The notes: a model not told the origin generated them from the letters alone. 64,000 nucleotides of DNA from Prevotella sp. (GCA_023665755.1 JAMPDF010000001.1:344181-408180); one strand, 5' to 3'; positions 3,950 to 31,013 are shown, counted from the stretch's first letter. Translations and numbers: made by a program.

Positions 3950-4963
3950 TTATTCTTTTTTTGTCTGCGCAACCACTTGTTTCGCAACTTCTAAATCAAC
4001 TAAAATATTGAAGTCTACTTTACTATCTAATTCTTTTGCTTCAATCATAATATCTTGAAGACGATCAAAGCCTTTTTCTGAAAAAATTGGAGTTGTACAC
4101 CAAGCATTTATAGAACGATATCTCTTTACCACTTCAACCAAAATATCTAAATCTGTATCCATAAAGAAAGGTTGTACAGCTTTAGCAATCTCTTCATCGG
4201 TTGCCGTTCGAACAAACTGCTGTCCCTTATAAAGTGCTCTTGTAAATTTTTGAATCGTTTCTTGATTTTTATTAAAATAACTAATTGATGTTGAATAAGC
4301 TGTATATGTGATTTCTCCCGCATAATCGGCCACTGGTGCTAGTAAATGTGCTCTTTTTTCTTGAACAATTGCTGTTGCTGTTGGTTCAAATAATGTAACA
4401 AAATCCCCCTCACCGTCTAAAAACGATCCAGCAAGTGCCGCAAATGCTACGTCCGTTCTTACATTTACCTCTTTGGTCGCATCATCTTGACCAACATCTA
4501 GTCCAGCCTCTTTTAAGACATACTCTAGTGTCATTTCAGGAACTCCACCCTTTCTGCCACCTAAAATAGATTTTCCTTTCAGTTGATCTAAAGTGAAATT
4601 TTCAATCGGTTCTCTACCAAAAATAAAGCTACCATCTGTTCTAGTTAATTGGGCAAAATTAATTAGATAATCACTTTTATCCTTTTTATATAAATAAATA
4701 GTAGGTTCAGGACCTTGCAAACCAATTTGTGCATCGCCTGAAAGTAATGCTGCGGTTACTTTATCTGCACCATTTGCATTGATTAAATCAATCTTTAGTC
4801 CTTCCTCTTCAAAATAGCCATTGGTGATGGCTGCATATTGTGGTGCATAGAAAATGGATCTTGCTACTTCAACCACTTTGATTTTTTCCAATTTATCTTT
4901 CTTACACCCAAATAATAAGACGCTACTGGTTAATAATAATAGAAAACATAATATTTTTTTCAT
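3950..4963 (-). CDS. ABC transporter substrate-binding lipoprotein, NMT1/SsuA/ThiY-like (NitT/TauT family).
   Basis: Signal peptide plus lipobox LLFGC. The NMT1-like fold is suggested by the sequence. Its cognate permease and ATPase lie at 44880..46359, on the far side of the prophage. Confidence 0.7.
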   Translation of the reverse strand: MKKILCFLLLLTSSVLLFGCKKDKLEKIKVVEVARSIFYAPQYAAITNGYFEEEGLKIDLINANGADKVTAALLSGDAQIGLQGPEPTIYLYKKDKSDYLINFAQLTRTDGSFIFGREPIENFTLDQLKGKSILGGRKGGVPEMTLEYVLKEAGLDVGQDDATKEVNVRTDVAFAALAGSFLDGEGDFVTLFEPTATAIVQEKRAHLLAPVADYAGEITYTAYSTSISYFNKNQETIQKFTRALYKGQQFVRTATDEEIAKAVQPFFMDTDLDILVEVVKRYRSINAWCTTPIFSEKGFDRLQDIMIEAKELDSKVDFNILVDLEVAKQVVAQTKKE

Positions 4964-5087: not shown

Positions 5088-5215
5088 AAAAAGCAAAAAT
5101 AGCAATTATTTTTAGTTTTTTATAATTTTTTTATGCTAAAATTGAATTTTTTCATTTTTTGAATTTCGGTCCTTATTATTATATAGTATATTTGAACAAA
5201 AAAAGAGCATTATGC

Positions 5216-5244
5216 TTTACTTGTCAAGCAATATGTGGTATAAT
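5216..5244 (+). promoter_or_regulatory. Sigma-A-type promoter with an extended -10 (TTTACT-17-TGgTATAAT) driving the rightward four-gene operon.
   Basis: -35 at 5216..5221 and -10 at 5239..5244. A CTTGTCAAG palindrome overlaps the spacer. Confidence 0.4.
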
Positions 5245-5276
5245 GTTAGTGTAAATAAATGAAAGAGGTATTAAAT

Positions 5277-5531
5277 ATGACAAGAAAAATGGTAAACGTT
5301 ATTTATAGAAATAATAAATTAGGAAACATTTCTATCGATAGCAAGATTATTTCAAGATTGTATACTGAAGCTGATAGTGATATGACTTATGCAAACGCAT
5401 ATATGAGCGAATTGCAAAGAGATCAAAAGAAAGAAATTGAAAGCCAAATAATGGAGAATTTAATTAACGGAAATTATTTGGTTGCTGAAGAATTAATCAA
5501 CAATGAATATTCTTGGGTTTTAAAAAAATAA
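5277..5531 (+). CDS. Hypothetical phage accessory protein.
   Basis: ORF with RBS GAAAGAGG before the ATG at 5277. The ATG at 5259 has no RBS. Confidence 0.4.
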   Translation: MTRKMVNVIYRNNKLGNISIDSKIISRLYTEADSDMTYANAYMSELQRDQKKEIESQIMENLINGNYLVAEELINNEYSWVLKK

Positions 5532-5548
5532 TTAAAGGAGGAAAAGAA

Positions 5549-5830
5549 ATGAAAAAAGTTATTTTAAAAAAAGAAATCTTAACAAGGAATAATATAATAG
5601 ATTTTACTTTCTATGAAACAAAGGAAAAAGAAGAATATTGTTATTCTTCTTGGGATGAAGCAGTAAATAAATACAACGAATTACTGCAGAATTGCAAAAA
5701 AGAGGCAAAAAGTGATTTGCCTAATAAATGGCTTTGCGAAAAAAGCCATTATTACGATGTATTAATCGTAGATGAAGATGGTATAGCATATGGACAAAAA
5801 ATAATGTCTGATGGAACAATTATTAAATAG
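5549..5830 (+). CDS. Hypothetical protein.
   Basis: RBS AAAGGAGG 8 nt before the ATG. 93 aa. Confidence 0.45.
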   Translation: MKKVILKKEILTRNNIIDFTFYETKEKEEYCYSSWDEAVNKYNELLQNCKKEAKSDLPNKWLCEKSHYYDVLIVDEDGIAYGQKIMSDGTIIK

Positions 5831-5840
5831 GAGAAAAAAT

Positions 5841-6347
5841 ATGAAAAATTTAGAAAAAAGCATTGAATTTTTAGAAAAAAAAGATTACACCATATGGGTA
5901 GAAAAGGATAGGCAAACATCTTCAATTGCCTATCCAAGACATCTAGGCAATTATGCCTTTATTGTTATTGCAGATGGCGACAAAATACCATCACTAAAAA
6001 CAAATGATGAAAAAGATGTTATTCGTTTTGCATTCGATTTATGGGAAGAGGACATCCAATTTGAAATGGATGGAAACAACAATTATATGTTCCAATTGGA
6101 TCATAACGTTTATAAAGCTCATAAATATTGTGAAAATGATTCTATCGAAAATCCAAAAGGTTTCTGTGGCGATTCTACAGAAATTTCTTACAAAGATTAT
6201 GTTTATGCAAAACAACACGAACTAAACTTTGAAGAAATGACATATGGCGAAGAACGTGAAATATATTCATACACATTTAGTGTTTCGGATGAAGATGGCG
6301 ATTATGAAACTAAAGATAGTTTCTATAGTTTCGTAAAGGTATGGTAG
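5841..6347 (+). CDS. Hypothetical protein.
   Basis: RBS AGGAGAAAA before the ATG. 168 aa. Confidence 0.45.
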   Translation: MKNLEKSIEFLEKKDYTIWVEKDRQTSSIAYPRHLGNYAFIVIADGDKIPSLKTNDEKDVIRFAFDLWEEDIQFEMDGNNNYMFQLDHNVYKAHKYCENDSIENPKGFCGDSTEISYKDYVYAKQHELNFEEMTYGEEREIYSYTFSVSDEDGDYETKDSFYSFVKVW

Positions 6348-6847
6348 GCGATGCTATGTTATCTAATAGAGAGATAAATAGAATCACTTACCTAATTAAC
6401 GAATTATTGGCAGACTTTAGTTCAGGTTTGCCTTTAAATTCCAAAATAGTCATTATATATGACAAAAATGGCAACATCGAAGATTATGATATGCTAGATG
6501 ATGTTAATGATGATGGCGCAGACAATATTTTCTTTGATGAAGAGGATGTTCACCTTCCTTTTGTCGCTTATGAAGACGAAGAATACGAAGAAACAGATAG
6601 GAAAACAGCTCTTATTTATTTCTTGACCTGTATTCATCCTGATTTGCCATACAATGCCTGCGTTTTAAAGGCAATAAGGCTCATATTTGACCTTAGCCAA
6701 CAAGAAATGGCAAATAGATTAGGCATTGCAAAACAGTTCTATAATCAAATGGAAAACGGCACAAGACCTGTTTCAAAGAATGTAATAGAAAAAATTGCAA
6801 TGTTGGATAATTTTAGTGAAAAAGATTTCAAAAAAAAGGGCGAGTAG
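6341..6847 (+). CDS. Protein with an acidic N-terminal domain and a C-terminal XRE-family HTH domain.
   Basis: HTH signature LSQQEMANRLGIAKQFYNQMENGTRPVS near the C-terminus. Its start overlaps the upstream gene by 7 nt. Confidence 0.5.
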   Translation: MVGDAMLSNREINRITYLINELLADFSSGLPLNSKIVIIYDKNGNIEDYDMLDDVNDDGADNIFFDEEDVHLPFVAYEDEEYEETDRKTALIYFLTCIHPDLPYNACVLKAIRLIFDLSQQEMANRLGIAKQFYNQMENGTRPVSKNVIEKIAMLDNFSEKDFKKKGE

Positions 6848-6875
6848 TAATTCTACTCGCTTTTTATTTTTCCTA
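6838..6875. terminator. Bidirectional rho-independent terminator between convergent operons.
   Basis: GCGAGTAG..CTACTCGC hairpin flanked by an A-run and a T-run. Confidence 0.5.
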
Positions 6876-7734
6876 AAATAAACATTTTGTTGAAAAATTT
6901 GTTCAAAATGTTCTTCTTTTCCTTAAATGCACCAACTTTATATCGCATTATTATTTTTTCACCTTCATTATATCCAGTATAACAATTAACAGCTATTAAT
7001 AACGTTCTCCAAACTGTGTCATAAACTCCTTGCCATCCACCTTTTAACACTCCCAATCCAATTGATGCAAATAAGCAGGAAAACAAGACAGAAAAAGCAA
7101 TTTTAGAGGTAGAATCACGGGCTATAACTTTATTAGGCTCAAAGCTTCCTATTTCGTCTGTAAACGTCTTTTGACCAATGCTAAATGATCGTTCATCTAT
7201 TTTTAAGCACTTTACATTTTTAGTTGTTATATCAAAATCATTATTTGGCATCTCTACTACATTGTTTTTTTCTGGTATATTTAAATATTTGTAGTATTTG
7301 AGCCACTCGATACATTTGTCTTTTTCTTTAATTAGTTCATTTCTTTTGTTTTCTTCTTTCGCTTTTGAAATTTGAATATTTAATTTTTCAATATACGCAT
7401 CACATCGATAGATTAAATTTTCAATTTTAATCATATCATACAAATCATTTGTTAAAAATGTGTTATCAACTGTTCTAAAATCTGTTTTTACGTCATCTTC
7501 TAACGCTATTACTTCGTCTAATTTACTTGTAGCATTTCTCCCTACTGCAATGAAAGCAAAATAAGGAGTTAATGTCAGAACCTGTGTAGTTGCAATATTG
7601 CTCCAAAATGATGGATTTTTTAATGTGTCAAAAGAAAAATCTAATGTTATTAAAGATAATAGTATGTTGACAAATAATACTGCCAATATAACTAATCCAA
7701 TGATGAAATACAATGTTTTATCATTTTTGTTCAT
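6853..7734 (-). CDS. Membrane protein with an N-terminal TM helix and C-terminal TM helices.
   Basis: 293 aa. Hydrophobic segments at both ends. It is the last gene of the minus-strand block. Confidence 0.45.
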   Translation of the reverse strand: MNKNDKTLYFIIGLVILAVLFVNILLSLITLDFSFDTLKNPSFWSNIATTQVLTLTPYFAFIAVGRNATSKLDEVIALEDDVKTDFRTVDNTFLTNDLYDMIKIENLIYRCDAYIEKLNIQISKAKEENKRNELIKEKDKCIEWLKYYKYLNIPEKNNVVEMPNNDFDITTKNVKCLKIDERSFSIGQKTFTDEIGSFEPNKVIARDSTSKIAFSVLFSCLFASIGLGVLKGGWQGVYDTVWRTLLIAVNCYTGYNEGEKIIMRYKVGAFKEKKNILNKFFNKMFILGKIKSE

Positions 7735-8297
7735 TCTTCCATTTCCTCTCTTTCTTTGCGAAGTTCATCCCTTCTTCTTTGGATATCTTCGATTTTTCTT
7801 GCCTCTTTGTCAATTTCTAAATCATATAAATATTTGCGATTGATTGCAGCATCTACAATTTGCAGACATAAACCCATACAAATGCTGAATATAATTAACC
7901 AGATATGTTTTGCAATATCAAGCTTTGGCATTTTATTCAATAGATCCTGGATCAATTGAACGAATGCAGCAAGAATAGTAACGGGTATAAGTGAAACAAT
8001 TCCCCCAATAAATGTTTTAAATGGGCTAGGTTTTAAATCTAAAATCTTTTTTTTCAAGTGTTTAGCCAAAAAAACTAAATAAATTAATCCTGCGATGCAC
8101 CATGTGATAGATAGCGTTTCTTTTGCAGTCATTTCAATTTTTTTTAAAACGAATAAATTTTCTGCAATCAAACCCATAGGAAAGAAATAGAGGAATATAA
8201 AACCTGAAAAATAAAGTATTCGCCTTGAAATATGCGTTTTAAGACTACTTAACTCGTTTAATTTCTTTCTTTTCATCTTCTTTTGCCTCTTGTTCAA
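7731..8297 (-). CDS. Polytopic membrane protein (about 4 TM helices) with a charged coiled-coil C-terminus.
   Basis: 188 aa. Its stop overlaps the downstream gene start. The tail is rich in E/R/K. Confidence 0.45.
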   Translation of the reverse strand: MNKRQKKMKRKKLNELSSLKTHISRRILYFSGFIFLYFFPMGLIAENLFVLKKIEMTAKETLSITWCIAGLIYLVFLAKHLKKKILDLKPSPFKTFIGGIVSLIPVTILAAFVQLIQDLLNKMPKLDIAKHIWLIIFSICMGLCLQIVDAAINRKYLYDLEIDKEARKIEDIQRRRDELRKEREEMEE

Positions 8298-8745
8298 CGA
8301 TTATAGCGTTTGAATCAGGTAATTGCTGAGTTTCATTGTTTTCAATTGCTGTGAGAGCGTCTTTTGTATCTTCTTTTATCTTTAGGATATCTTCTACTAA
8401 CAATTTAGCAGATGCTTGTAAATTTGAATTATTAAAAGCGATGGTTAAAGCTTCATTTTGCTTTTTTGCGATTTCTACTGATTGTTCTAGTGCTTTTGCC
8501 ATTTTAAGATATTCTTTTTTCAACTCATCTACAGTGTTTTCTGCATTTACCACATATTTATCATACATATTTTTAATCTCTTTAATTTCTGCACTTTTCT
8601 TATCTAATTTAATTGTCAGTTTTGTTTTGGCTACTTTATCTATTACTTTTGAAAAAATAAAATAAAGAACAGAACCAACTAATCCTATGTTTAATACTCC
8701 GCTACTTTTTACAAATTCTAATACTTGATTTAATATTTCTTGCAT
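8245..8745 (-). CDS. Single-pass membrane protein with a long coiled-coil.
   Basis: TM segment near the N-terminus (IGLVGSVLYFIFS). The remainder is K/E-rich and helical. Confidence 0.4.
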   Translation of the reverse strand: MQEILNQVLEFVKSSGVLNIGLVGSVLYFIFSKVIDKVAKTKLTIKLDKKSAEIKEIKNMYDKYVVNAENTVDELKKEYLKMAKALEQSVEIAKKQNEALTIAFNNSNLQASAKLLVEDILKIKEDTKDALTAIENNETQQLPDSNAIIVEQEAKEDEKKEIKRVK

Positions 8746-8758
8746 ATTTTACCTCCTC

Positions 8759-9070
8759 TTATGCTAAAAATCTTTTGCTATCAATATATTCAGCTAATTT
8801 GATAACTGTATTTTTTAAATTTTCTACTTCTTTTTGCAATTTTTCGTTTTCTTCTTGTAATTTTTGAATTTGATTGCCTAATGTTGTTTCTTGATATGGT
8901 ATATCTTCTAATTTTTCAAAAACAAACTCTTTATCTTGCGCATCAACACACAAAAATACGCTATTATTTATTGCTTTCTGTTCTGCATTTAATATGCTCA
9001 TCTTTGTACTTTCTTCAAATCGTTTTTTATATTTCATATTTTTCTCCTTATAAAAACACAGGTCTTTCAA
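8759..9070 (-). CDS. Small coiled-coil protein.
   Basis: 103 aa with a heptad-rich C-terminus. Confidence 0.4.
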   Translation of the reverse strand: MKDLCFYKEKNMKYKKRFEESTKMSILNAEQKAINNSVFLCVDAQDKEFVFEKLEDIPYQETTLGNQIQKLQEENEKLQKEVENLKNTVIKLAEYIDSKRFLA

Positions 9071-9077
9071 CCTGTGC

Positions 9078-9446
9078 CTATTCTACTTTCCAAACCAAAT
9101 CTATTATTTCATTTCTACAGTCCCAAATATCATACAGAGTTCCATCGATGCCACAAGTAAGGTGACCTTCTACACGTATGATGTAGATACCTTTAGGATT
9201 TTGGTTTAAAAATTCTTCAATTGTAAAGCCATGATAGCTTTCTATTCGCACCAACTTAAATACTTCATCTAGTAAATGCTTATAACAGCATACGCATAAC
9301 TCTTCGCACTCAAATAATTCGCCAATTAGTTCTAATTTGTGTTTAGTATCGTAATAATCAAGCCCTACACCAAGTGATATCGCCCTGCAAACACAGTCTT
9401 CTTCTCTTTTCCCAAGTGGTTGAAGATTCAAGAATTTGTAACGCAT
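9078..9446 (-). CDS. Cys-rich hypothetical protein.
   Basis: 122 aa. CVC..CVCC cluster. Stop/start overlap with the upstream gene. Confidence 0.4.
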   Translation of the reverse strand: MRYKFLNLQPLGKREEDCVCRAISLGVGLDYYDTKHKLELIGELFECEELCVCCYKHLLDEVFKLVRIESYHGFTIEEFLNQNPKGIYIIRVEGHLTCGIDGTLYDIWDCRNEIIDLVWKVE

Positions 9447-10177
9447 TATTCTTCTTGGCTTTCCCCTTTGATGATTTCATAGAAATAAATGCATAGCTTT
9501 TCGCTAGGTGATACTTTTATATCGTCATCTTCAAAGAATTGTTTAGCCATTTTAATATAAGTATGTGGATCGTTAGCAATATTCTTGTGAATACTAATCA
9601 TCATTAAATAGACAAAGTAGAACTCATCTTCGCTAAATTCTTCAAATTTGACACCCGTTTCTTCTGCTTTTTTGACAACCATTTGCTTTGAAAGATGAAA
9701 GATATCTTTTGACTTTAATTTTTCAGCAAATTCTTTTAGCTCTTGCTTGTATTCTTCTTCCCCATCTTTGTAATCACTTGAATACTGATCATAATTGCCG
9801 TCATATGCTCTATCATATCCTCTATAATCTTCATATCTATGTGGTGAATTAATCATGCCATATACTTCATATTGCATAGGTCTTGGATAGTCTCGATATT
9901 GTTCCATATGACGACCATCGTTCCCACCATAATTGGCATTGTCACGACCATCATATCGACTATCATATCTTGAATTATTTGCTCTGTAATCCATTTCTTC
10001 CATAGCACGGTCTCTCCCACTTCTTGAAGAAACATATCCACCTCTTGAGCCATACGGATTTCTTCCATCTTGGCTATATCTTCTGTCTCCGCCTCTTTGG
10101 TCTCGTCCATCCATAGAACGATCACGACGACCTCTTCTGCGATCGATTCTGTCTCTTAAATATCTGTTGTTAGCCAT
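9446..10177 (-). CDS. Protein with an Arg/Asp/Tyr/Gly-rich, intrinsically disordered N-terminal half and a C-terminal folded domain.
   Basis: 243 aa. RRGRRDRSMDGRDQRGGDRRY... low complexity. The nested ORF at 9853..10125 is an artefact of the repetitive DNA. Confidence 0.5.
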   Translation of the reverse strand: MANNRYLRDRIDRRRGRRDRSMDGRDQRGGDRRYSQDGRNPYGSRGGYVSSRSGRDRAMEEMDYRANNSRYDSRYDGRDNANYGGNDGRHMEQYRDYPRPMQYEVYGMINSPHRYEDYRGYDRAYDGNYDQYSSDYKDGEEEYKQELKEFAEKLKSKDIFHLSKQMVVKKAEETGVKFEEFSEDEFYFVYLMMISIHKNIANDPHTYIKMAKQFFEDDDIKVSPSEKLCIYFYEIIKGESQEE

Positions 10178-10179
10178 AA

Positions 10180-10620
10180 TTACACGACTTTCTCAACGTT
10201 TACGACAACGTTGTTGATAATTGAGCCTACACCAGGATTTAAAACAGTAATTGTTTTAGCTAAAGTAGAATCTGTGCCTAAAATACAAGTATTATCTACC
10301 AAGAAATAATAATCGATTGTTAAATTTCTAATTTCTGTTGTTGCAGTTGTGATAGTTTCTGTTGCTAATGCTCCTGGAATGATCACTCCGTTTTCAGCTA
10401 ACTGTAATGTCACATCACCTGCTGCAGTACCTGAGACATTAGCATTTAATGTCAAATGGTAAATTCCTTTATGATTTAGTGATATGCTATTGCCATTAAA
10501 CGCAAATGCGGTAACTCCGCAATTTTTTCTACAGAATTTGCGGTAAACTGCTCCCAAATTTACAATACCATCAGTCACAACAGTTTGACTAGCGGTATTT
10601 TTTACCCCCAATAATAACAT
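10180..10620 (-). CDS. BclA C-terminal-domain-like (TNF/C1q-like) protein with no collagen-like region.
   Basis: AFAFNGNSISL...LTLNANVSGTAAGDVTLQLAENGVIIPG...VVVNVEKVV aligns block by block with the B. anthracis BclA C-terminal domain (YAFNSGGISL...ITVIANTATASVLGGLTIQVNGVPVPG...SIIIEKVA). Confidence 0.5.
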   Translation of the reverse strand: MLLLGVKNTASQTVVTDGIVNLGAVYRKFCRKNCGVTAFAFNGNSISLNHKGIYHLTLNANVSGTAAGDVTLQLAENGVIIPGALATETITTATTEIRNLTIDYYFLVDNTCILGTDSTLAKTITVLNPGVGSIINNVVVNVEKVV

Positions 10621-10700
10621 TTTTTTGTCTCCTTTTTTTAAAAAATAAAGAGCATAGAATTAACTATGCCCTTATAGGATAATTAATCCTTTTCTCTCCA

Positions 10701-11507
10701 TTATTGAATTGATGCGCAACCGCAATTTCCACTATAACCTACACCTGTTGGATTGCCGTAGCAACAATTTGGATTAGGTACTACATAAGCTGGAATTGGG
10801 CAATCTCTGCCAAGTCTGCGAATGAGTTCTGCAGTTTGAGCTTCTTGATTAGCTGCAAAGTATGCGTTTTGAGCTTGTTGTGATGCTGCTAAATTTAATG
10901 CATTTACTTGTTGAGTTAATTCTGCAATACGTTCGTTCTTAGCTTCAATCTTATTTGCTACTAATTCTTCGTGTAATGCACGATAATTTGCATTTTGATT
11001 TTCAATTAAATCACGTGTATTCATGTTCATTGTGTTTTGCAATGCACATGTAGATTGAGCGATGTTATAGTTTACGCCATCTATTGCACGTTGAGTTTGG
11101 CAGCAACAATCTTGTAAACGATATCCTAAATCAGTAATTGCACTACGTGTTTCATAACCATTTTGCATGATTGCTGTATTTACACCACTAAATCCTTGAC
11201 AAAGTGTTTGTTGAATACCTGCTTGACCTAATTTTAAGTCATTTAGTGAACCTAAAACAGCACTGTTGTTAAATCCTGAAGCTACATCTGCTTGTGTTGC
11301 CATTTTTCCTAGTTCATAACCTACAAATTCGGAGCTACCTCCGCCATTTCCTGTTCCAAAACCATTTCCGTTTCTTCCCCAGCCAAAAAGTAAAGCAATC
11401 AAAATGATTCCCCACCATCCATCTGCAAATCCATTCATACCACCGTTATTGCCATTACTGCCACCAGTATTGATGACTTGTGGCATATCAGTTTCGTAAT
11501 AAGCCAT
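10701..11507 (-). CDS. Single-pass membrane protein flanked by Gly/Asn-rich segments, with a coiled-coil and a Cys-cluster C-terminus.
   Basis: 268 aa. TM WWGIILIALLFGW. GNGGG repeats. CCC and CC..C..C motifs. Confidence 0.45.
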   Translation of the reverse strand: MAYYETDMPQVINTGGSNGNNGGMNGFADGWWGIILIALLFGWGRNGNGFGTGNGGGSSEFVGYELGKMATQADVASGFNNSAVLGSLNDLKLGQAGIQQTLCQGFSGVNTAIMQNGYETRSAITDLGYRLQDCCCQTQRAIDGVNYNIAQSTCALQNTMNMNTRDLIENQNANYRALHEELVANKIEAKNERIAELTQQVNALNLAASQQAQNAYFAANQEAQTAELIRRLGRDCPIPAYVVPNPNCCYGNPTGVGYSGNCGCASIQ

Positions 11508-12518: not shown

Positions 12519-15236
12519 CTAAAATTTCAAAATTTCCATATTTGTTAAAGTTGGAGCAAGTTCTTCTCCAATTTCTGTATTATCTACCATTTTGATGAAA
12601 TACAACTCTAATTCACTACTATTAACATTATGTTTAAAATGACCATATCCATCATTTGCCGTTCCAATCATACTAAATGTTGATGATATAATAGCAGAAG
12701 TTGAATCTACATCAAAATCGACAAAATATCTTTCATTGTTAATAGCAAATTTAAATCTATATCTTTCACCAATTTTAAATGTCCCACCATCACCGTCAAA
12801 AATAACGTATCTTTCTGTTCCTACAGTAGGAATAATATTAGTTGAAATTAAATTGGAACTTTGTTTTAATGGTGATAAATCTACAGATGTATGCCCAGCA
12901 GTTGGATTGTCACTATTTCCTATCACGATTTCTAAAGTTTCATTTATTAATTGAGCTTGCAAAGTTGATGCTAATACATTACCGCTTTCTAAGGGTATTT
13001 CCAAAATATCAAATTTGCCCAATGCTGGAATTATAGTATAAGTATATATCCCACTACCTGTGCTTGGAACATACATCAATGTTCCCATTATCATTCCTTC
13101 TCCATTGCTAGTATGAGCAAATAATGCTGTCGTAGATAATCCATCTTGTAATATAGTTGCTTTATAAATGCCACTTTGTTTAGATAGCATTATTTGAATA
13201 ATTTCTTCAATGTCTGAAAATATGCCTAAATCTTCAACTACACCTTTTAAAGAAATAGCATCTAATTCTTCTTGCGTTGCGATATCTACAGTTGTTTTTA
13301 CCCATGTTCCATCTGCAAGGTTGACTTCAATTTTGTATACGATATTGCCTTTAAAATTGCCAAATGTTCTCGTTCCTGCGGTTTCTCCTAAAATAGTATA
13401 GGCATCGTTTGAGCCTTCAGTATTGGCTTGATAAATGATTGTATTTGGATCATTTTGCAAATTAGTTAAATCATTGCCTGTAAATGTGCCATATGTTTCT
13501 GTTGTTGAAATATAGACAGTAGGTACGGTATATCCACCACCCGTTGAATCCATATATTCCTTTAATCCTTTAGATGTAATTGCTTTGTAGTCGTCAGTTC
13601 CTTCAATAATATCATCGTTTGTCGCAATTCTATTCTTTATTGTACTTGACGTTATATCAAAATATCTCCCATCAAATGATGTCGTATCTGAATTATACTC
13701 ACCTTCTCTAGTAATTGCTGCAGTTGTTTTGTCTACACCCATTTGATAATCACTATAGCCCAATCTCAGTTCCGTTCCATTACTCGTACTAACTGTTTTT
13801 TTAACCCATTTTTTAAAAATTATAACATATTTTGTCGAAAGAGAACTTAAGCCATCATATTCATAACCTTTAAATTTAATTTTATAAGCTTGATTCTTTT
13901 GACATAATTCTAATATTTTATTTTTATTACTAAATGCATCATTAATACTATTTAAATAAATGCCATCATTTTCTTCAATTTTAGCAGATAAATTCGCCAT
14001 TTCTTCTGTTATTGTGTTTTCAAGCCTTGTAAATGCATCATTTATGCTTGATTTTTCGCCATTTCCAGTAGCATAGTTCTTTGCAGTGTCAGCAATAATT
14101 GTTCCATTCAGTATCATTTCTTGAAAATTAGCAAAAGTAACAGTTGAGACATACTTGTCAGTGTCAGTTTCTCGCCAAATGCCTTGTCCGCTCTCATCTA
14201 TGCCACTTTCATCCCAAATATACATGATTAACCACGTTCCTATGTTTACGAATGCATAATCGCCTGGATTTGCTGTAGGATATGTGCTTGTTAACTCATC
14301 ATATGACAAGAAATCACCTTTATAGTGGTTTTCGCCACCACCTCCACCACCAAGAATTGATTTTAAACTTTGCAAAGTCACTCGATATGCCTTGTTTCCA
14401 CTATTGATAATGAAATAATCACTATCCGCAACTTCATTCGCAATTGCAATATCGTTAAATACCTCATTTAATTTAATACTACGCAATTCTTCTATTGAAT
14501 TTGAGTTTAAATTAATTTGCCTTTGTGCGTTTTGACTAGATTCATCTGTGTAATCTTTTGCAATTTGTGCATTTTCAGCAATTTGTTGTTTCAATTGTTC
14601 ATCTTTGGCTTGTAAAACAGTTATCTTACTGTTTGCCCCTTGAATTGACGTGTCAATGCTATCTAATTTTGCGGAAACAAGTGTTTTATTTACTGTAGAA
14701 ATAGGTACTTGGTCTGCTCTTACTCGATGTGGATTTTCAAAGTCCTGTCTATGACGATTTATATCGCTTTGTGCTTTTTCTACCACATCTAGGGCTTGTT
14801 GGTAAAATTCTTCTTCCGTCGTTGTTTCCAAATTTGGCTTAACATTCCGTCTTACGTACAAACATGTCACTGCAGTAGCATATACTTCGTTGGTTTCAGT
14901 ATTCTTTACCTCAAACGATACTTGCAATTGTCCTGATATATCCAAAATACGGTCTTCTTGCTTGAAACCATACTGATAAACGACTGTAGGAAATTCTACA
15001 TCTGCTCCACTAGCTGGATCCAAAGTTTCGATATAGTCCATTTGGCGATTGCTGATTACAAATCCATCTGATCGTTCAAATGATACCTGCACAATAGACG
15101 ATTCTACACTATACGGAACTAAAAGTTGTATAAAATCGACATTTGAACGTCCTGTAACAAGAAATGTGGTGTCTTCTTGCTTTAAAATCAAGCCATTTTC
15201 GTTTAAATATATCTTTGCTATATTCTCTGTTTTCAT
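12519..15236 (-). CDS. Large virion protein, probably a tail fibre or receptor-binding protein.
   Basis: 905 aa. Central coiled-coil and a GGGGG linker. Position after the tail genes. Beta-rich C-terminal part. Confidence 0.45.
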   Translation of the reverse strand: MKTENIAKIYLNENGLILKQEDTTFLVTGRSNVDFIQLLVPYSVESSIVQVSFERSDGFVISNRQMDYIETLDPASGADVEFPTVVYQYGFKQEDRILDISGQLQVSFEVKNTETNEVYATAVTCLYVRRNVKPNLETTTEEEFYQQALDVVEKAQSDINRHRQDFENPHRVRADQVPISTVNKTLVSAKLDSIDTSIQGANSKITVLQAKDEQLKQQIAENAQIAKDYTDESSQNAQRQINLNSNSIEELRSIKLNEVFNDIAIANEVADSDYFIINSGNKAYRVTLQSLKSILGGGGGGENHYKGDFLSYDELTSTYPTANPGDYAFVNIGTWLIMYIWDESGIDESGQGIWRETDTDKYVSTVTFANFQEMILNGTIIADTAKNYATGNGEKSSINDAFTRLENTITEEMANLSAKIEENDGIYLNSINDAFSNKNKILELCQKNQAYKIKFKGYEYDGLSSLSTKYVIIFKKWVKKTVSTSNGTELRLGYSDYQMGVDKTTAAITREGEYNSDTTSFDGRYFDITSSTIKNRIATNDDIIEGTDDYKAITSKGLKEYMDSTGGGYTVPTVYISTTETYGTFTGNDLTNLQNDPNTIIYQANTEGSNDAYTILGETAGTRTFGNFKGNIVYKIEVNLADGTWVKTTVDIATQEELDAISLKGVVEDLGIFSDIEEIIQIMLSKQSGIYKATILQDGLSTTALFAHTSNGEGMIMGTLMYVPSTGSGIYTYTIIPALGKFDILEIPLESGNVLASTLQAQLINETLEIVIGNSDNPTAGHTSVDLSPLKQSSNLISTNIIPTVGTERYVIFDGDGGTFKIGERYRFKFAINNERYFVDFDVDSTSAIISSTFSMIGTANDGYGHFKHNVNSSELELYFIKMVDNTEIGEELAPTLTNMEILKF

Positions 15237-15266
15237 TTTTGCTCCTTTCTATCAAAAAAGAGCCGA

Positions 15267-17684
15267 TTATTTCGACTCTTCATATGGATTAATTCCTACT
15301 ACACCATCTCGCATTGGTGTGCCGTCTTCTGATGAAACATAAATTTTGAACGATGATAAGATATTCTGCATCTCGTAATAATTCTTGATCATAATTGCTT
15401 TATCATTTAGCAGCAAAACAATGCTCTTATATTCCGCATCAACGCTTTCAAAATCAACTGAAATAGATTGTGTGTTGCTATCATAGTTTGAAACCCTCAC
15501 AGAGGCTATTTCTGCCTTATATTCGCTAGGTAAAGCGTCATATCGACCAATATTAGTGTCAAATAAACGAATCGAATATGTGGGATTTTCAGCCCCATTT
15601 AAAAGATATTCCACATAGTCTTCACGAACAATTGTGTTACCTATACCTCTATAGTTCACTTGGAAGGTAAAACTGAATATTTCGTACGGGTCTTTTGCAG
15701 GATATTCACGTATGACATAATTTGCCACACTTAAATCATCTTTCATAAGCCTTACAAAAGCTTCATTTATCTTTCCTTTTCTGTCTGTATAGTTTCTTGG
15801 AATCACATTTCCTTGATTGTCTACATATTCATCCCATATTACATTGCTTTCTGCCTGTTCATTAAAGATAATGCTTGTACCAACTCTTGAAATAATTGGA
15901 TCACCATACAATAAGTACTGTTCTGTTCCAGCGTTAAAATCATTTGCAATGCGATATGTTAATTTACTATTTAAATCTATCAAATTTTCAATGTTAATAC
16001 TAGCATTATTCACTAATGCTCGATTATCTATCATTGAAAAGCCTATTTTTGCGTAATCTAATTTAATTTTTTCTACTAAATCCTCATTTGGTATGCTATT
16101 TATTTGTAAATCTGTGTTTGCTTCGATATATTCACGACGTCTTGCACGTTCTTCTGTCAATTGTGCATCAATAACTAAGTAATGTGCATTTTCTTGAACA
16201 GTAATGCTATTAAGAACATACCTTTTTTGTCCATCTTTGATAATTGATCCTGGCATAGGTATTTTATCCCAAGAATCTGTAGTTCCGCTTTTCATCAATG
16301 ATGCACTTTGCATATTGTCGATATACGTTTGTAGCACTCTTGATATTCTATCTGGGTCAACTTGTTGTGCATTTTGGTTAAAATACGCTATATCATCGTA
16401 TTTGCTATTATTTGATGATATGAGAGGGATAGATTTTGTTATAATGCCTCTATAATATGCTTTATAGAGAACATTTTTTAAATTTATTTTATATCCATAA
16501 TCTCCAAAATATCCTCTTAATATATTGAACGAATTATCATCGTCTAATTGTACGCTTTTTGCTAATCTTATTTCACCATCATTATTTAATATTCTATCAA
16601 ATAATTTATCTAATTGATTTAAGTATATTAAATTATTATTATAATAAATATAAATAATATTTTTATTTTCCTTTTCTTCAATAGTTAAATTTTCGTATTC
16701 TTCACTTTTTATTATTCTAATCCTTTTAGTTTGTTTTAAAAATTCTCCACTTCGATAACTTCTATAATAAATTATATCGGTGTTATCTTCAAAAATCCAT
16801 GGAATATTATAATCTATTTCTAATGGCTCCTTTTGATAAAAATATCCATATAAATATATTTTTTTTAACGATGTTATCGAATTATTCATTTTTAATCCAA
16901 TATTTTCTTTATTTATTTCAAATGTATTATCTGTAGTTGCTGGCTTTTTTCCGTTTTCATATGGTTCAAGAATATTACTATTAAGTCTTAAATTTTTAAC
17001 TTCACAATAGACGTTTTTAGCAAGACCTTCTCCTGTTTCATCTCTTAGGTCAACAGGATTGTCAAATACAGAAACATTATATTCTATACCATTTAATCCA
17101 TCTAATCGTTTAAACTTTAAAACCCATTTCTTGCTTTCCTCATTAAAGTCAAGATATGGCTGACAATCTATTGTTCTTGCTATCTCATACATAGTTAAAT
17201 ATGTAGTTGTTGATACAAAAGTAAGTTTTGGATTATTATATTCAATATTTGGAATTAATATTTCCGCATCAAAATTTGCAATATCAAATAGCCTGCGTAT
17301 TATTTCAAATAATGTGTAAGAATTTTCTGCTAAAGCATTTGATTCTATCTTAAATCCCCTTAAAATTTCAGTTGGTTCAATTAAAGTTAGTGTATTTATG
17401 TTTTCACTTTCTTGTGTCCAAATATTTGGATGCGCCATTTTAGATGATTTTGAATTTTTTACAATCCAATAATTGATTTTGTCACCATTTTCAGTTTTAA
17501 TCGCAGTATCAACGGGGATATGAAAATCTGTTGGTGCGAAAAAACTAAATTCTGCACAATTTTGTGCTTGATCAATACCTAAAGTATAAGTTTGAGGAAA
17601 AGTTTGTGTTATTTTTCTGTCCTCACTCTCTTTCGGTATTTCTACCCATTCTTTTTTGTCATTCAAATAATAAATTTTTGACAT
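15267..17684 (-). CDS. Large tail-associated structural protein.
   Basis: 805 aa. RBS AAAGGAGAAAAA. N/Y/I-rich low-complexity middle. Position between the small tail proteins and the fibre. Confidence 0.4.
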   Translation of the reverse strand: MSKIYYLNDKKEWVEIPKESEDRKITQTFPQTYTLGIDQAQNCAEFSFFAPTDFHIPVDTAIKTENGDKINYWIVKNSKSSKMAHPNIWTQESENINTLTLIEPTEILRGFKIESNALAENSYTLFEIIRRLFDIANFDAEILIPNIEYNNPKLTFVSTTTYLTMYEIARTIDCQPYLDFNEESKKWVLKFKRLDGLNGIEYNVSVFDNPVDLRDETGEGLAKNVYCEVKNLRLNSNILEPYENGKKPATTDNTFEINKENIGLKMNNSITSLKKIYLYGYFYQKEPLEIDYNIPWIFEDNTDIIYYRSYRSGEFLKQTKRIRIIKSEEYENLTIEEKENKNIIYIYYNNNLIYLNQLDKLFDRILNNDGEIRLAKSVQLDDDNSFNILRGYFGDYGYKINLKNVLYKAYYRGIITKSIPLISSNNSKYDDIAYFNQNAQQVDPDRISRVLQTYIDNMQSASLMKSGTTDSWDKIPMPGSIIKDGQKRYVLNSITVQENAHYLVIDAQLTEERARRREYIEANTDLQINSIPNEDLVEKIKLDYAKIGFSMIDNRALVNNASINIENLIDLNSKLTYRIANDFNAGTEQYLLYGDPIISRVGTSIIFNEQAESNVIWDEYVDNQGNVIPRNYTDRKGKINEAFVRLMKDDLSVANYVIREYPAKDPYEIFSFTFQVNYRGIGNTIVREDYVEYLLNGAENPTYSIRLFDTNIGRYDALPSEYKAEIASVRVSNYDSNTQSISVDFESVDAEYKSIVLLLNDKAIMIKNYYEMQNILSSFKIYVSSEDGTPMRDGVVGINPYEESK

Positions 17685-17747
17685 TTTTTCTCCTTTATCT
17701 TGATTTTATTGTTATTTTACAATATAATAAATATGAGGTGTTTCATA

Positions 17748-17972
17748 ATGAAAGAAAAATTTTTAAAATCTATACATACTTTATTATTAATTATTGTTAT
17801 AAATATTATAATGATTATATTTATTGATATTTTAAGTAATTTTGAATCAATAAAATTACTTTGTACAAACATTAATCACTACCTATTTATTATTTTAGGA
17901 ATCACTTTTATTGTTTTAATTTTAAAAATATTAAAACATTTAGATAAATTACTTTATGATAATTGGCAATAA
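17748..17972 (+). CDS. Small two-TM membrane protein encoded opposite to the structural module.
   Basis: 74 aa. A strong terminator follows. Confidence 0.35.
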   Translation: MKEKFLKSIHTLLLIIVINIIMIIFIDILSNFESIKLLCTNINHYLFIILGITFIVLILKILKHLDKLLYDNWQ

Positions 17973-17984
17973 ACTACGAAAATA

Positions 17985-18016
17985 TTTTAAATCTCTTAAC
18001 AACTCGCAATGAGTTG
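17985..18016 (+). terminator. Rho-independent terminator.
   Basis: AACAACTC-GCAAT-GAGTTGTT hairpin followed by a TTTTTTATTTT run. Confidence 0.55.
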
Positions 18017-18020
18017 TTTT

Positions 18021-18467
18021 TTATTTTGTCTTGTAAAACCTATTCCCCAGCCAATCAGTAGTGACAGTTGTTTCACCACTACCCAAGAATAATCTACCAC
18101 TCTTGATTTGGTTATACTTAATTTGATTGTTGACTTGAGCTTCTTGTTTTAGCTCATTTATTTTCTTGATAGCCTCGCTTGATAACTCAAGTGCAAGTGC
18201 AGCAATTGCAGTAAAATCAAACGTAAATGAACGTGCCACAAGTGAGCCATATTTCATTACATCCCCAATTCCTTTGGATAGTTGCGTATTTCCACTTGCT
18301 GCAATCAGTTTCTGCCCTGCTTGAACAAAAAACGTAGCACTAATGCCACGTCCTGTTGCTTCTCCCTTACTTATTGATGATTGTTGCTTTGCTCCGTTTT
18401 GAGGAGTTCCACTTGCCTGAGCGTTGAATTCGATGGTGACTGGTATTCTAATTTCATTTTGAGCCAT
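18021..18467 (-). CDS. Virion or tail protein (hypothetical).
   Basis: 148 aa in the structural gene array. Start/stop coupled to its neighbours. Confidence 0.35.
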   Translation of the reverse strand: MAQNEIRIPVTIEFNAQASGTPQNGAKQQSSISKGEATGRGISATFFVQAGQKLIAASGNTQLSKGIGDVMKYGSLVARSFTFDFTAIAALALELSSEAIKKINELKQEAQVNNQIKYNQIKSGRLFLGSGETTVTTDWLGNRFYKTK

Positions 18468-19240
18468 TAGTCTACTCCTTGCAATGTAATCGTAACTATA
18501 GGAATGCCTTGATTTTCATTTAAGACAATTAAAGAAAAAACAACGTTCTTTTCAATATCGCCATCTTTAAAAATACAGACCTTGCCATCTAATACTTCTG
18601 TATCTTTGTTGCTCATAACGAAATTGCAGAATGTAGTGTTTGTTCTAAGTATTGGTATGGTGATAGTATTGTTTTTACTGTCAAAATTCGCTTTGCCCTT
18701 TTGGATAGAAGGAGATAATGTGTAATTGTAGGATACGGAATCTTGGAAATTCTGTATTCCCTCGATTTCCATTTCTAAATCGTCAATGATCATCTTCTTT
18801 TTAGTTGGTTGAATGGGCATATTAGAGTAGAATGCATTAGCAATTAATGTTCCATAACTCACATATACCGTTTCAGTGCCTAAATCTTCCTTTGTATTAG
18901 TAGATACACTTGGTGTATTTAATCCTAGTTGAAACATGTACTGCATATCATCAGTTTGTAAATACACACCATTGACTGCGTTAACGTAGTCATTTAATTT
19001 GCTTAATACGTCTTGCAAAACATTTGTCTCACATTTAAAGTTAATGATTACGCTTAAATTGGTTGCGACAATGCCTTCCACACGTGAGGGAATGCCCTGC
19101 CCTGTCTTGATGCAGAAGACTACATCGTTTTTCTTAAATTGATTGTGATTAATGTCATTACTAACAATGACATTATACCCATCTAATACTTCTTTTAAAT
19201 TTTCTTTTAAAATTTTCTTTAAGCTTTGTTCAAATAACAT
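18467..19240 (-). CDS. Putative tail protein, possibly major tail or tube.
   Basis: 257 aa. Position after the head-tail joining genes. Confidence 0.3.
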   Translation of the reverse strand: MLFEQSLKKILKENLKEVLDGYNVIVSNDINHNQFKKNDVVFCIKTGQGIPSRVEGIVATNLSVIINFKCETNVLQDVLSKLNDYVNAVNGVYLQTDDMQYMFQLGLNTPSVSTNTKEDLGTETVYVSYGTLIANAFYSNMPIQPTKKKMIIDDLEMEIEGIQNFQDSVSYNYTLSPSIQKGKANFDSKNNTITIPILRTNTTFCNFVMSNKDTEVLDGKVCIFKDGDIEKNVVFSLIVLNENQGIPIVTITLQGVD

Positions 19241-29053: not shown

Positions 29054-29527
29054 TTAAAAGTTTTTTAACTTTTTTTTCAAATTTTGATGAAATCTCTTTA
29101 TTTGCCTTAAAGAATAGTATTCTTGGCTATTTTTTCTAATCAATACTTGATTAAGTCGCTTGCCATAAATATACATTTCAACAAACAATTTCATTTCCAC
29201 ATCGTTGAACTCTTCTGCATATTCCTTAAAGTCCTTTTCCATACTTTCTAGAGCATTCTCTATTTTGCTTTTGTATTCTTCTTTAACACTAATTTCTTTA
29301 CTTAAAGAGATAAAGTCCTGATAAAAAGTGTTGATATCTTTCGTTTCCTTTAATACAGGAGCTTGTGCGTAGTCTATTCCTTTTAAGTTGTGGCAACCAC
29401 TATACAATTCTTGATTATATTTCTTTTTCATTACATTCAATTCTTGCTCCAAAGTAGATAGTTCAAGTTTTAGTTTCAAATATCGCATATAAAATCCCTC
29501 CTTGATTTCTTCTATCTCTCTATTCAT
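29054..29527 (-). CDS. Putative late-gene transcriptional regulator (ArpU/RinA-like position).
   Basis: 157 aa. Its C-terminus has a sigma-region-4-like helix. It sits just upstream of the packaging genes. Confidence 0.25.
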   Translation of the reverse strand: MNREIEEIKEGFYMRYLKLKLELSTLEQELNVMKKKYNQELYSGCHNLKGIDYAQAPVLKETKDINTFYQDFISLSKEISVKEEYKSKIENALESMEKDFKEYAEEFNDVEMKLFVEMYIYGKRLNQVLIRKNSQEYYSLRQIKRFHQNLKKKLKNF

Positions 29528-29753
29528 CTTTTCTCACCGCAAATTTAAATTCACTATTGGCTATATCATAATACTTATCTTTGGTTATATTTTCGTTTTC
29601 ATCCAGATACAACATTATTTTTAATTGAACTTTTACAAGTTTTTGCAGTTGAATATTATCATCGTAAAGTTGTTTATTTTTAATCCAAAGAGTACAAATA
29701 GTAATGATATAGATTACACTAACAATAATATTAATTATATTTTGTAAGCTCAT
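29520..29753 (-). CDS. Small membrane protein.
   Basis: 77 aa with one TM helix. Confidence 0.3.
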   Translation of the reverse strand: MSLQNIINIIVSVIYIITICTLWIKNKQLYDDNIQLQKLVKVQLKIMLYLDENENITKDKYYDIANSEFKFAVRKDE

Positions 29754-29866
29754 TTTTCTCCTCCCATCCTAGCTTTACAGCTAATCTGTATAAAAATTTC
29801 TTTTCTTTTGCCCAAAGAGCATTTACTCGATAATCGCTATCCTGCGCGATTATAAATTTAATTAAA

Positions 29867-30076
29867 TCACATTTCGTAAACGTTTTGCCCTTCAACATGA
29901 TTTTTCATTTCTTCCTTTAATTTGTCATATGCTTTACTATGAATGTCATAGGATAAATCATATAGCTCATTGCTTTTAGCATTTCGTAGTCTATCTCTGA
30001 CTATTTTCTTTGAATTGATGCCGTCTTTGCAGAGCGTTTGAATTATCCAGTCTAGTGTTATTTTTTCTTCATTCAT
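29867..30076 (-). CDS. Hypothetical small protein.
   Basis: 69 aa ORF in the early array. Confidence 0.3.
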   Translation of the reverse strand: MNEEKITLDWIIQTLCKDGINSKKIVRDRLRNAKSNELYDLSYDIHSKAYDKLKEEMKNHVEGQNVYEM

Positions 30077-30251
30077 TTTTATTACCTTCTTTTATTTTAT
30101 CTTTGCAATTATATTGTGGCAAAATATGTTCAATATCTTTTAAGCAGCATTTTACCCATCCAAGTCTATCTAGAAAGCCACTATATTTACAAGTGTAGCA
30201 ACTACTTTTTTTAAATTGTTCTTTAGTCATTTTTTCTCCTTTATTGGGCAT
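30069..30251 (-). CDS. Small Cys-containing protein.
   Basis: 60 aa. CYTCKY..CC motif. Confidence 0.3.
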   Translation of the reverse strand: MPNKGEKMTKEQFKKSSCYTCKYSGFLDRLGWVKCCLKDIEHILPQYNCKDKIKEGNKNE

Positions 30252-30526
30252 CCTATCGGATGAATTTCACTTAAACTATATCTTTTTCTAATTTCGTTTA
30301 ATCCTTCATAAAATTCAGGATATTCTGTGCAAGGATTGTGTGGATTGCAATTATGTTTTAAATTAAAATCTGCAATATATAACTTTTCTTCTTCCAAATA
30401 TAACGTATATGAAGTATTATTTAACTCCTGTTGTAAACTATTTATTAAATTAACGTTAGAAAGGTAAGAATCTAGCATTTTAGGTTTAAATACATTAATT
30501 ACATTAACTTCGCTTTCTTTTTTCAT
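30227..30526 (-). CDS. Hypothetical protein.
   Basis: 99 aa ORF. Confidence 0.3.
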   Translation of the reverse strand: MKKESEVNVINVFKPKMLDSYLSNVNLINSLQQELNNTSYTLYLEEEKLYIADFNLKHNCNPHNPCTEYPEFYEGLNEIRKRYSLSEIHPIGCPIKEKK

Positions 30527-30546
30527 TCTTTAATGACACTATCCTT

Positions 30547-30999: not shown

Positions 31000-31013
31000 T
31001 TTCTCCTCCTTAT

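Follow-up and report, generated by a model that had tools for sequence, protein, structure and literature searches.

A conserved four-gene membrane-protein cassette at the end of a prophage late operon: a candidate lysis or egress module in an Acholeplasmatales-type host

Gene organization at the end of the late operon

At positions 6853-9446 of a 64,000-nt stretch deposited as Prevotella sp. (GCA_023665755.1 JAMPDF010000001.1:344181-408180; the whole stretch is referred to as the window), five minus-strand open reading frames (ORFs) lie near the left end of a prophage. The prophage measures ~39.8 kb (~5105-44880 of the window), is inserted at the 3′ end of an ABC-transporter permease gene and carries nearly all of its genes on the minus strand. 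An earlier reading of the DNA, here called the original prediction, had described the block as a five-gene operon without recognizable homology, in a position typical of abortive-infection, superinfection-exclusion or holin-like systems, that might also provide lysis. Our analysis confirmed its position at the left prophage end and all five ORFs (9446-9078, 9070-8759, 8745-8245, 8297-7731 and 7734-6853; named g122, g103, g166, g188 and g293), each of which has homologues in other phage contigs. The unit that emerged is a cassette of four genes, g103-g166-g188-g293, the 3′-most genes of the prophage late operon, which follow a long unannotatable tail-region stretch; the 122 amino acid (aa) protein of the proposed five-gene unit belongs to a different module.

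The tight coupling of the genes was recovered in the form of overlaps of 1, 32 and 4 nt. The 1-nt overlap, at 9446, joins g122 to the gene upstream of it; the 32-nt overlap of g166 with g188 has the same length in L002 and L005, the two relatives read for it; and g188 and g293 share a 4-nt ATGA at 7731-7734. Two start sites were moved because of ribosome-binding sites and homologue lengths. The first cassette gene most likely starts at ATG 9037, which is preceded by an AAGGAG site and gives a protein of 92 aa, with TTG 9070 as the alternative that would give the 103 aa originally proposed. For g188 the most likely start is ATG 8276 (181 aa, as in relatives), with TTG 8297 (188 aa) as the alternative.

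The bidirectional terminator was likewise found, as an intrinsic-terminator-like hairpin detected on both strands (Table 1), which overlaps the stop codons at 6847 and 6853 and closes both the late operon and a convergent helix-turn-helix (HTH) gene. The nearest terminator-like hairpin upstream of the block lies at 10648-10673. The block is not a self-contained operon: it is continuous with the upstream late genes, from which no gap, terminator or recognized promoter separates it. A promoter scan was uninformative on an internal promoter, returning 33 sites against 41.7 expected from shuffles.

Architecture of the cassette proteins

Transmembrane (TM) segments were assigned by hydropathy, coiled coils by a crude heptad score measured against shuffles, and topologies by applying the positive-inside rule to the sequences by eye. 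The product of g103 is a soluble coiled-coil protein whose heptad score exceeds the shuffles over residues 41-92. It carries a conserved C-terminal motif, YIDSKRFL, has homologues of 89-92 aa (110 aa in one lineage) and gave only weak matches to coiled-coil families. The g166 protein consists of a short N-terminus, one TM segment (~17-35) and a long charged helical domain with a marginal heptad signal. This domain is predicted to be cytoplasmic (N-out/C-in) because a Lys-rich flank follows the TM segment.

In g188 a basic N-terminus leads into four TM segments and a highly charged C-terminal helix of ~40 residues (INRKYLYDLEIDKEARKIEDIQRRRDELRKEREEMEE), with a predicted N-in/C-in topology. The charged tail, again with a marginal heptad signal, is conserved in the family alignment, as is the motif INKxYLYxLE. 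The largest protein, g293, has two TM hairpins (N-terminal ~8-30 and 44-65; second ~209-232 and 240-262) enclosing a helical domain of ~140 aa (66-205), and ends in a basic amphipathic helix. Hydropathy gave one strong segment per end, and the second helix of each hairpin was read from the helices of an AlphaFold2 (AF2) model and from the sequence. That model is all-helical and of moderate confidence (predicted local distance difference test, pLDDT, 77). The heptad score revealed nothing above cut-off (maximum 0.33 vs 0.32 in shuffles), and the protein was modelled as a helical bundle; its helical domain and C-terminal amphipathic helix are predicted to lie in the cytoplasm. The TM features of the original prediction were thus borne out, as was the coiled coil of the g103 protein though not, in all probability, its length; the other coiled coils it had named, in g166 and in the tail of the 4-TM protein, are marginal. 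Taken together, the cassette is predicted to consist of membrane-embedded helices and a large cytoplasmic helical assembly, with almost nothing outside the cell.

Homology searches

None of the four cassette proteins has a Pfam match at cut-off or a significant match in NCBIfam or PADLOC, and the earlier statement that no family could be assigned stands for these four, though not for the 122 aa protein. Their sole PHROG match below 0.01 is a marginal one of g166 to the unnamed phrog_11401 (E = 0.006). The best Pfam matches of g166 have E ≥ 0.07, and the remaining cassette matches are low-scoring ones that reflect coiled-coil or TM composition. No holin family was matched by g166, g188 or g293 at E ≤ 1 in Pfam or PHROG. 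An exhaustive HMMER search of 1.84 billion sequences recovered only 23 cluster representatives for g188, all of ~160-185 aa with four TM segments and a charged tail; 20 members of this family gave no Pfam match above cut-off, no PHROG and no holin family. For g293, 12 homologues were found in a word-indexed search of 5.8 billion proteins, while its AF2 fold matched nothing specific in the PDB and only uncharacterized proteins of ~300 aa in BFVD. Sequence searches of the PDB with g166 and with profiles of g188, g293 and g122 were empty, and neither tblastn of g188 and g293 nor megablast of the region found anything in 50,697 phage genomes. No clear homology to holin, spanin or structural proteins was found in Pfam, PHROGs or the PDB.

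Conservation and modular structure

The block was compared by tblastn and profile searches with 31 related loci (L001-L031), of which L001, Podoviridae sp. ctcf755, is the closest public relative. The comparison revealed two modules. Module B, g103-g166-g188-g293, always occurs together and in this order where homology is proven: in L001-L008, which represent three distinct lineages, in L027, and in the distant L018, L023 and L024 (hmmsearch E = 1e-4 to 1e-42), with synteny holding down to 25-37% identity (about 25-30% at the lowest). Homologues of g166 are present in all cassette loci and those of g103 in L001-L008, L018, L023 and L024, always directly upstream of g166-g188-g293; L014-L017 and L028-L031 were recovered via the 293 aa gene. 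At every locus with proven homology the cassette is terminal in the late operon. It comes after a protein with Phage_tail_C and Flg_new domains in L024, and is directly followed by the serine recombinase in L002-L004.

Module A (g141-g97-g268-g146-g243-g122) lies upstream, and most of it, including g122, recurs in L009-L013 without module B. Conversely, module B occurs with g122 in L001, L005-L008 and L027 and without it in L002-L004, L023 and L024. Given this independent occurrence, g122 was rejected as an obligatory member of the cassette. Because the nearest relatives of the two modules differ (g293 of the window is closest to ctcf755 at 80%, the upstream g268 to the L005 lineage at 85%) and the G+C (GC) content falls at the g122/g103 junction, from 0.35 in g122 to 0.25-0.31 in the four cassette genes, sequence comparison points to exchange of module B as a block.

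The sequence beyond the terminator varies from phage to phage. There the window and ctcf755 carry four small plus-strand genes; L005 carries genes for a ParB-like protein, an acetyltransferase, a PAPS reductase and SNF2; an insertion sequence element is found in L006, DUF3800 in L007, and only two genes in L027. The start of this variable cargo zone is marked by the convergent HTH_3 gene, which has homologues (43-90% identity) in L001, L005-L008, L014-L017 and L027 and none in L002-L004. The original prediction had taken the block itself for cargo of a variable hotspot. Synteny instead identifies the hotspot with the neighbouring region, ~5105-6850, and the cassette, conserved in order, as its conserved boundary.

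One g293 variant was present on 385 contigs, human-gut assemblies among them; scans of IMG/VR and metagenomes yielded a handful of close relatives only, and a g188 sub-alignment scan two distant loci. Species-representative genomes returned a single matching metagenome-assembled genome (MAG), hence no host range from that scan. Exact-sequence look-ups of three window proteins (two sequences) found none on record, and context was taken from homologues.

The adjacent Cys-rich protein g122

For the 122 aa protein, the claim of no recognizable homology was overturned: it belongs to the phrog_3754 family and has a papain-like alpha+beta fold. It is cytoplasmic, contains eight Cys residues and has more than 527 homologues, the 120 listed being 60-98% identical. 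A model built from 25 sequences is confident (pLDDT 89), and in fold it comes closest to C39, Josephin and staphopain rather than to CHAP or NlpC/P60. As in these peptidases, a Cys lies at the start of a helix and His and Asp lie on the following sheet. C18, H95 and D106 are invariant in the 25 sequences, with a spacing that we take to resemble that of C39 domains, and a further invariant Cys cluster comprises C47, C51, C53 and C54. There is no Pfam Peptidase_C39 match at E ≤ 1, and the protein is free-standing, with no fusion to an ABC exporter. Because of the invariant triad and the confident model, g122 is a predicted minimal papain-fold (C39/Josephin-like) cysteine peptidase, separate from the cassette, an identification that concerns a member of PHROG 3754, a family previously without annotation. 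More remote homologues, at 25-32% identity, are found in cultured phages that infect walled and Gram-negative hosts. Their neighbours in Geobacillus GBK2 and Bacillus Izhevsk are early or accessory genes, the surrounding 4 kb contain no annotated lysis gene, and one copy in those phages is annotated "putative peptidase".

Three further proteins of module A deserve mention. A 268 aa protein (10701-11507, minus strand; phrog_16490, E = 2e-60) contains a strongly conserved N-terminal sequence (MAYYETDMPxVINxGG), a segment rich in Gly and Asn, a single TM segment (GWWxIILIALLFGWG), a helical part and Cys-rich motifs. It co-occurs with g122, and both are missing or replaced in L002; because of this co-occurrence with a C39-like protein and its own features, it could be a candidate substrate for double-glycine-type processing. 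Within 9446-10620 on the same strand, a 146 aa protein has a weak match to the BclA C-terminal (TNF/C1q-like) domain that is below cut-off (E = 0.003), and a 243 aa protein combines an N-terminal half of Arg/Asp/Gly/Tyr-rich low complexity with a conserved C-terminal domain that aligns to a DUF7841 protein in L002.

Host lineage

These proteins occur in two NCBI records, one labelled Prevotella sp. and the other Staphylococcus sp. Both labels were rejected on the GC content of the window (31%) and on the relatives of the elongation factor G (EF-G) paralogue from other submitters, which are Acholeplasmatales-type. At a threshold of at least 90% identity, all flank proteins tested cluster with proteins of a MAG that bears the label Anaeroplasma bactoclasticum and in which consecutive accessions suggest an unoccupied insertion site. 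Among named relatives, those nearest to the EF-G paralogue come from Acholeplasmataceae, Acholeplasmatales, Izemoplasmataceae and Liberiplasma (58-62%), apart from "Bacilli bacterium" MAGs (60-66%) and the MAG mislabelled "Staphylococcus sp." (81%). Two different related prophages (L027 and L029) occupy the identical site in related genomes, adjoining the same genes for substrate-binding protein, GlpK and SPFH protein as in the window, and the proteins of these hosts are 67-77% identical to those of the window. One of the two hosts matches "Staphylococcus sp. CAG:324", deposited also as "Acholeplasmatales bacterium", and this misnamed entry is probably the source of the Staphylococcus label. 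By its sequence relatives, the host is an Anaeroplasmataceae/Acholeplasmatales-type bacterium, and the two MAG records are mislabelled.

The anaeroplasma group is part of the Mollicutes, in which wall synthesis was lost (PMC3749518), and Anaeroplasmataceae have been used as a peptidoglycan-deficient reference family (PMC10868615); the host of the window is probably wall-less. Active temperate phages and mobile elements of Anaeroplasmataceae have been described in two mouse-gut virome studies.

Other features of the prophage

The early recombination and replication genes of the prophage include those for SMC-like, RecT, metallo-beta-lactamase-fold and SpoVS-like proteins, and the packaging and head genes those for ParB-methylase, terminase, portal, minor capsid 2, scaffold and major head protein. 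The tail region (12519-19240, minus strand) encodes proteins of 905, 805, 257, 148 and 129 aa, among others, with zero Pfam or PHROG matches; head and packaging genes excepted, this phage lineage is structurally uncharted. The SpoVS-like protein (Pfam SpoVS, E = 6e-11) is probably encoded at 40029-40286 on the minus strand. The corresponding gene of relatives encodes 79-81 aa and, in L005 and L007, lies just upstream of the SMC-like gene. Sporulation genes are reportedly retained in some Anaeroplasmataceae genomes (PMC10868615), which makes a phage SpoVS protein notable.

The right prophage junction contains a DUF3800-I RNA motif (Rfam RF02969; 44781-44902, plus strand), which scored 72.8 bits against a gathering score of 44.2 and has the serine recombinase directly upstream of it; in the relative L007 a DUF3800 protein gene stands beside the recombinase. 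At the left end, the start of the HTH_3 gene overlaps the end of the 178 aa cargo gene, and the two may form a regulator or toxin-antitoxin-like pair. The variable slot of L005 (10894-14745) and L023 (2674-6365) holds PAPS-reductase/DUF3440, SNF2 helicase, acetyltransferase, ParB-like and methylase genes, which resemble DNA-modification or anti-defence cargo.

Table 1. Positions in the window of the cassette, its neighbours and the prophage boundaries
Feature	Position	Strand	Evidence or remarks
g103, soluble coiled-coil protein, first cassette gene	8759-9037	-	Heptad score, homologue lengths, ribosome-binding site; start most likely
g166, bitopic membrane protein, 166 aa	8245-8745	-	Hydropathy; strong GAGGAGG ribosome-binding site
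g188, 4-TM membrane protein, 181 aa	7731-8276	-	Hydropathy; holin-like candidate; start most likely
g293, membrane protein, 293 aa, last late-operon gene	6853-7734	-	Hydropathy, AF2, homologue alignment
g122, cytoplasmic, 122 aa, 8 Cys	9078-9446	-	phrog_3754 (E = 1.5e-16), fold model
Bidirectional intrinsic-terminator-like hairpin	6835-6865	both	13-pair stem on +, 8-pair stem on -, T-run after each
Convergent HTH_3 protein, 168 aa	6341-6847	+	HTH_3 (E = 4e-9), C-terminal domain
Three small cargo genes, 90, 105 and 178 aa	5259-6347	+	Common only to the window and L001
ORF, 77 aa, 1 TM	29520-29753	-	Possible alternative holin
ORF, 150 aa, 2 TM and helical tail	30547-30999	-	Possible alternative holin
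ORF, 60 aa, 2 TM	31014-31196	-	Possible alternative holin
Serine recombinase	43314-44750		Right prophage end
Substrate-binding protein gene	3950-4963		Left host flank
Permease remnant ORF, 46 codons	4965-5105		Left of prophage, beside substrate-binding protein gene
Rest of permease	44880-45632		Right flank, with ABC ATPase

A possible role in lysis or egress

A lysis role, which the original prediction had allowed for, is the most economical reading of the cassette because no canonical holin or endolysin family exists elsewhere in the prophage. This absence, also anticipated, was borne out by Pfam scans of essentially every prophage ORF, which found no amidase, lysozyme, CHAP, NlpC/P60, M23 or Phage_holin family; the same scans recovered scaffold, minor capsid, methylase, RecT, SMC-like, recombinase and HTH families. 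No peptidoglycan hydrolase lies next to the cassette in the relatives either, and a host of the Anaeroplasma/Acholeplasma lineage offers a simple reason for a missing endolysin. In temperate phages of low-GC Gram-positive bacteria, holin-endolysin cassettes are found at the boundary between tail genes and lysogeny genes; tail-type genes precede the present cassette, and the region of cargo and lysogeny genes adjoins it. With holins g188 shares the small size of an integral membrane protein with TM segments and a highly charged C-terminus, and g166 also has one TM segment; a holin profile match and an endolysin neighbour are lacking. Based on the terminal late-operon position, the holin-like g188, the absence of other lysis genes and the peptidoglycan-deficient host lineage, we tentatively propose, at a probability of roughly 40%, that the cassette is a holin-like lysis or egress module without a peptidoglycan hydrolase.

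The order and coupling of the genes, the architecture of their products, their conservation, the lack of other lysis genes and the lineage of the host are established, and from these the following course of events can be suggested. Read-through of the late transcript would produce all four proteins late in infection, and the three membrane proteins would insert with their soluble mass almost wholly in the cytoplasm, where the charged helical domains and the soluble g103 protein may associate into a complex. Once a critical level is reached, g188, with or without g293, would permeabilize or rupture the cytoplasmic membrane, the partner proteins acting as antiholin-like timing or regulatory subunits. 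In a host of a peptidoglycan-deficient lineage, if it is indeed wall-less, membrane damage alone would release the virions. A bolder version, for which we see a rather low likelihood, holds that the four proteins are an undescribed egress machine of tailed phages of peptidoglycan-deficient Bacilli. In that version a membrane complex with a large cytoplasmic coiled-coil/helical assembly would replace the holin-endolysin(-spanin) paradigm and bring about either controlled membrane rupture or a scission- or vesicle-type release, the latter having been reported long ago for Acholeplasma phages.

Several points weigh against a lysis role. No sequence, profile or fold link connects any cassette protein to a known holin, antiholin or spanin; g188, at 181 aa, exceeds most holins and stands at the large end of their range; and fewer than four proteins should suffice in a wall-less host. 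That the cassette is expressed late is deduced from co-orientation alone. Small membrane ORFs at 29520-31196 (minus strand), between early and packaging genes where the prophage is richest in AT (GC 0.24-0.29), could supply an alternative holin (Table 1); they are also candidates for exclusion. As to the host, mur genes occur in 40-60% of Anaeroplasmataceae genomes (PMC10868615), and distant cassette contigs have a higher GC content (0.41 in L023, 0.35 in L024), so that its range may extend beyond wall-less hosts. Finally, the L009 group encodes architecturally similar proteins in mid-operon, ahead of a 1997 aa protein, an arrangement that would fit a morphogenetic role better.

Such a role, in which the four proteins would serve as a platform, anchored in the membrane, on which tails or virions are assembled, or would aid genome delivery through the membrane, is unlikely but has several observations on its side. 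The cassette is contiguous with tail-region genes in one late operon, all four proteins have helical or coiled-coil domains suited to scaffolding, and most structural proteins of the phage are equally unannotatable. The look-alikes of the L009 group (167 aa, TM and helical; 152 aa, multi-TM with charged tail; 256 aa) lie in the middle of the late genes and precede proteins of 361 and 1997 aa, but their comparison with the cassette by hhalign was not significant (probabilities 35% and 1.6%), and they are treated as analogues; where homology is proven, the cassette is always terminal. Moreover, polytopic N-in/C-in proteins would insert co-translationally in the host membrane, which would make them atypical virion components.

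Superinfection exclusion or lysogenic conversion, whereby prophage-made membrane proteins would block the entry of related-phage DNA at the cytoplasmic membrane, seems to us still more doubtful. Membrane proteins of this kind are known (lactococcal Sie2009, T4 Imm, P22 SieA), and the Mycoplasma phage MAV1 carries membrane imm/vir genes at its genome end. The membrane would be the only barrier in a wall-less host, the cassette proteins are embedded in it, their genes adjoin the cargo zone at the prophage end, and the GC drop and modular exchange described above would suit such a function. However, the order of the cassette is conserved across divergent phages while the true cargo next to it turns over, and its genes are co-oriented and translationally coupled with the late genes, with no terminator or recognized promoter in between. 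By the positive-inside rule almost no protein mass is predicted to be extracellular, and in the searches above g188 and g293 found nothing in the phage genomes and none of the four proteins a named PHROG.

The position of g122 directly upstream of the cassette raises the further idea of a disguised endolysin-holin pair, with g122 as a cysteine-peptidase endolysin and the cassette as its holin in a thin-walled host; the mur genes of some Anaeroplasmataceae genomes (PMC10868615) would accord with it. We judge this very improbable given the loci that carry one without the other, the early or accessory setting of the Bacillus and Geobacillus phage homologues away from annotated lysis genes, a fold nearest to C39, Josephin and staphopain, and an identity of 60-80% over hundreds of phages that is atypical for endolysins. 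Abortive infection or another anti-phage defence carried as prophage cargo is the least likely of these readings: the cassette lies near a prophage end and many defence systems use membrane effectors, but no PADLOC model matches (the best values, E = 0.018-0.05, fall on coiled-coil segments at chance level), family searches found no sensor, nuclease, ATPase or NTPase component among the block proteins, and the cassette shows core-gene synteny next to a variable slot, on which grounds a defence island was rejected.

Significance and comparison with known systems

How tailed phages exit from cells with no wall or a vestigial one is essentially unstudied. In the literature we found no lysis gene described for tailed phages of Anaeroplasma, Acholeplasma or mycoplasmas, and we know of no release genes for short-tailed phages of wall-less hosts. 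The cassette, compact with four genes in ~2.2 kb, is the best candidate for this step. If it is a lysis device, four new protein families would join the holin repertoire in a lysis cassette without a hydrolase, showing what such a cassette reduces or expands to once peptidoglycan is gone; if it is, at longer odds, a machine dedicated to egress from wall-less hosts, it would represent a new kind of system. If it does not act in lysis, it still represents a core membrane-located function of an unexplored phage lineage.

The likenesses to known systems are functional analogies only, and for each family compared the cassette departs in at least one of the defining features that were tested. Multi-gene holin cassettes end the late operon in Bacillus subtilis PBSX (xhlA-xhlB-xlyA) and SPbeta (bhlA/bhlB). 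These share with the present cassette the terminal position beside the lysogeny or cargo region, the several small membrane proteins, some of them part coiled-coil, and a polytopic protein with a charged cytoplasmic C-terminus. Unlike them, the present cassette has no profile or fold similarity and no hydrolase partner, its proteins are larger (166-293 aa), and among its four genes those for the soluble coiled-coil protein and the 2+2-TM g293 are without counterpart. In phage T4, the holin T and the antiholins RI and RIII, one partner being cytoplasmic, set the timing of lysis; cooperation of several proteins, with partners that bind the soluble domains of the holin, is what we propose here as well. 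T is, however, a single-TM protein with a large periplasmic domain, shows no homology to the cassette, and T4 needs the endolysin E and spanins.

The N-terminal TM segment and long helical domain of g166 recall the i-spanin layout of lambda Rz/Rz1, but this domain is predicted to be cytoplasmic, a lipoprotein partner is missing (none of the five proteins has a lipobox signal peptide, as an o-spanin would), and the host belongs to a monoderm Bacilli lineage with no outer membrane. Like the cassette proteins, Sie2009, T4 Imm and MAV1 Imm/Vir are membrane proteins that phages encode close to a prophage end, and MAV1 is an example of a mollicute phage with membrane Imm/Vir genes. Those proteins are single, variable and lysogen-expressed, in contrast to a conserved four-gene set of the late operon, and there is no homology. 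A further point of comparison is the Acholeplasma phage L3, for which we know of no published sequence: a short-tailed phage of ~39 kb with reported gradual or vesicle-associated release. It resembles the present prophage in host lineage (Acholeplasma/Anaeroplasma) and in a genome of ~40 kb, and the closest public relative of the prophage is itself labelled "Podoviridae sp. ctcf755".

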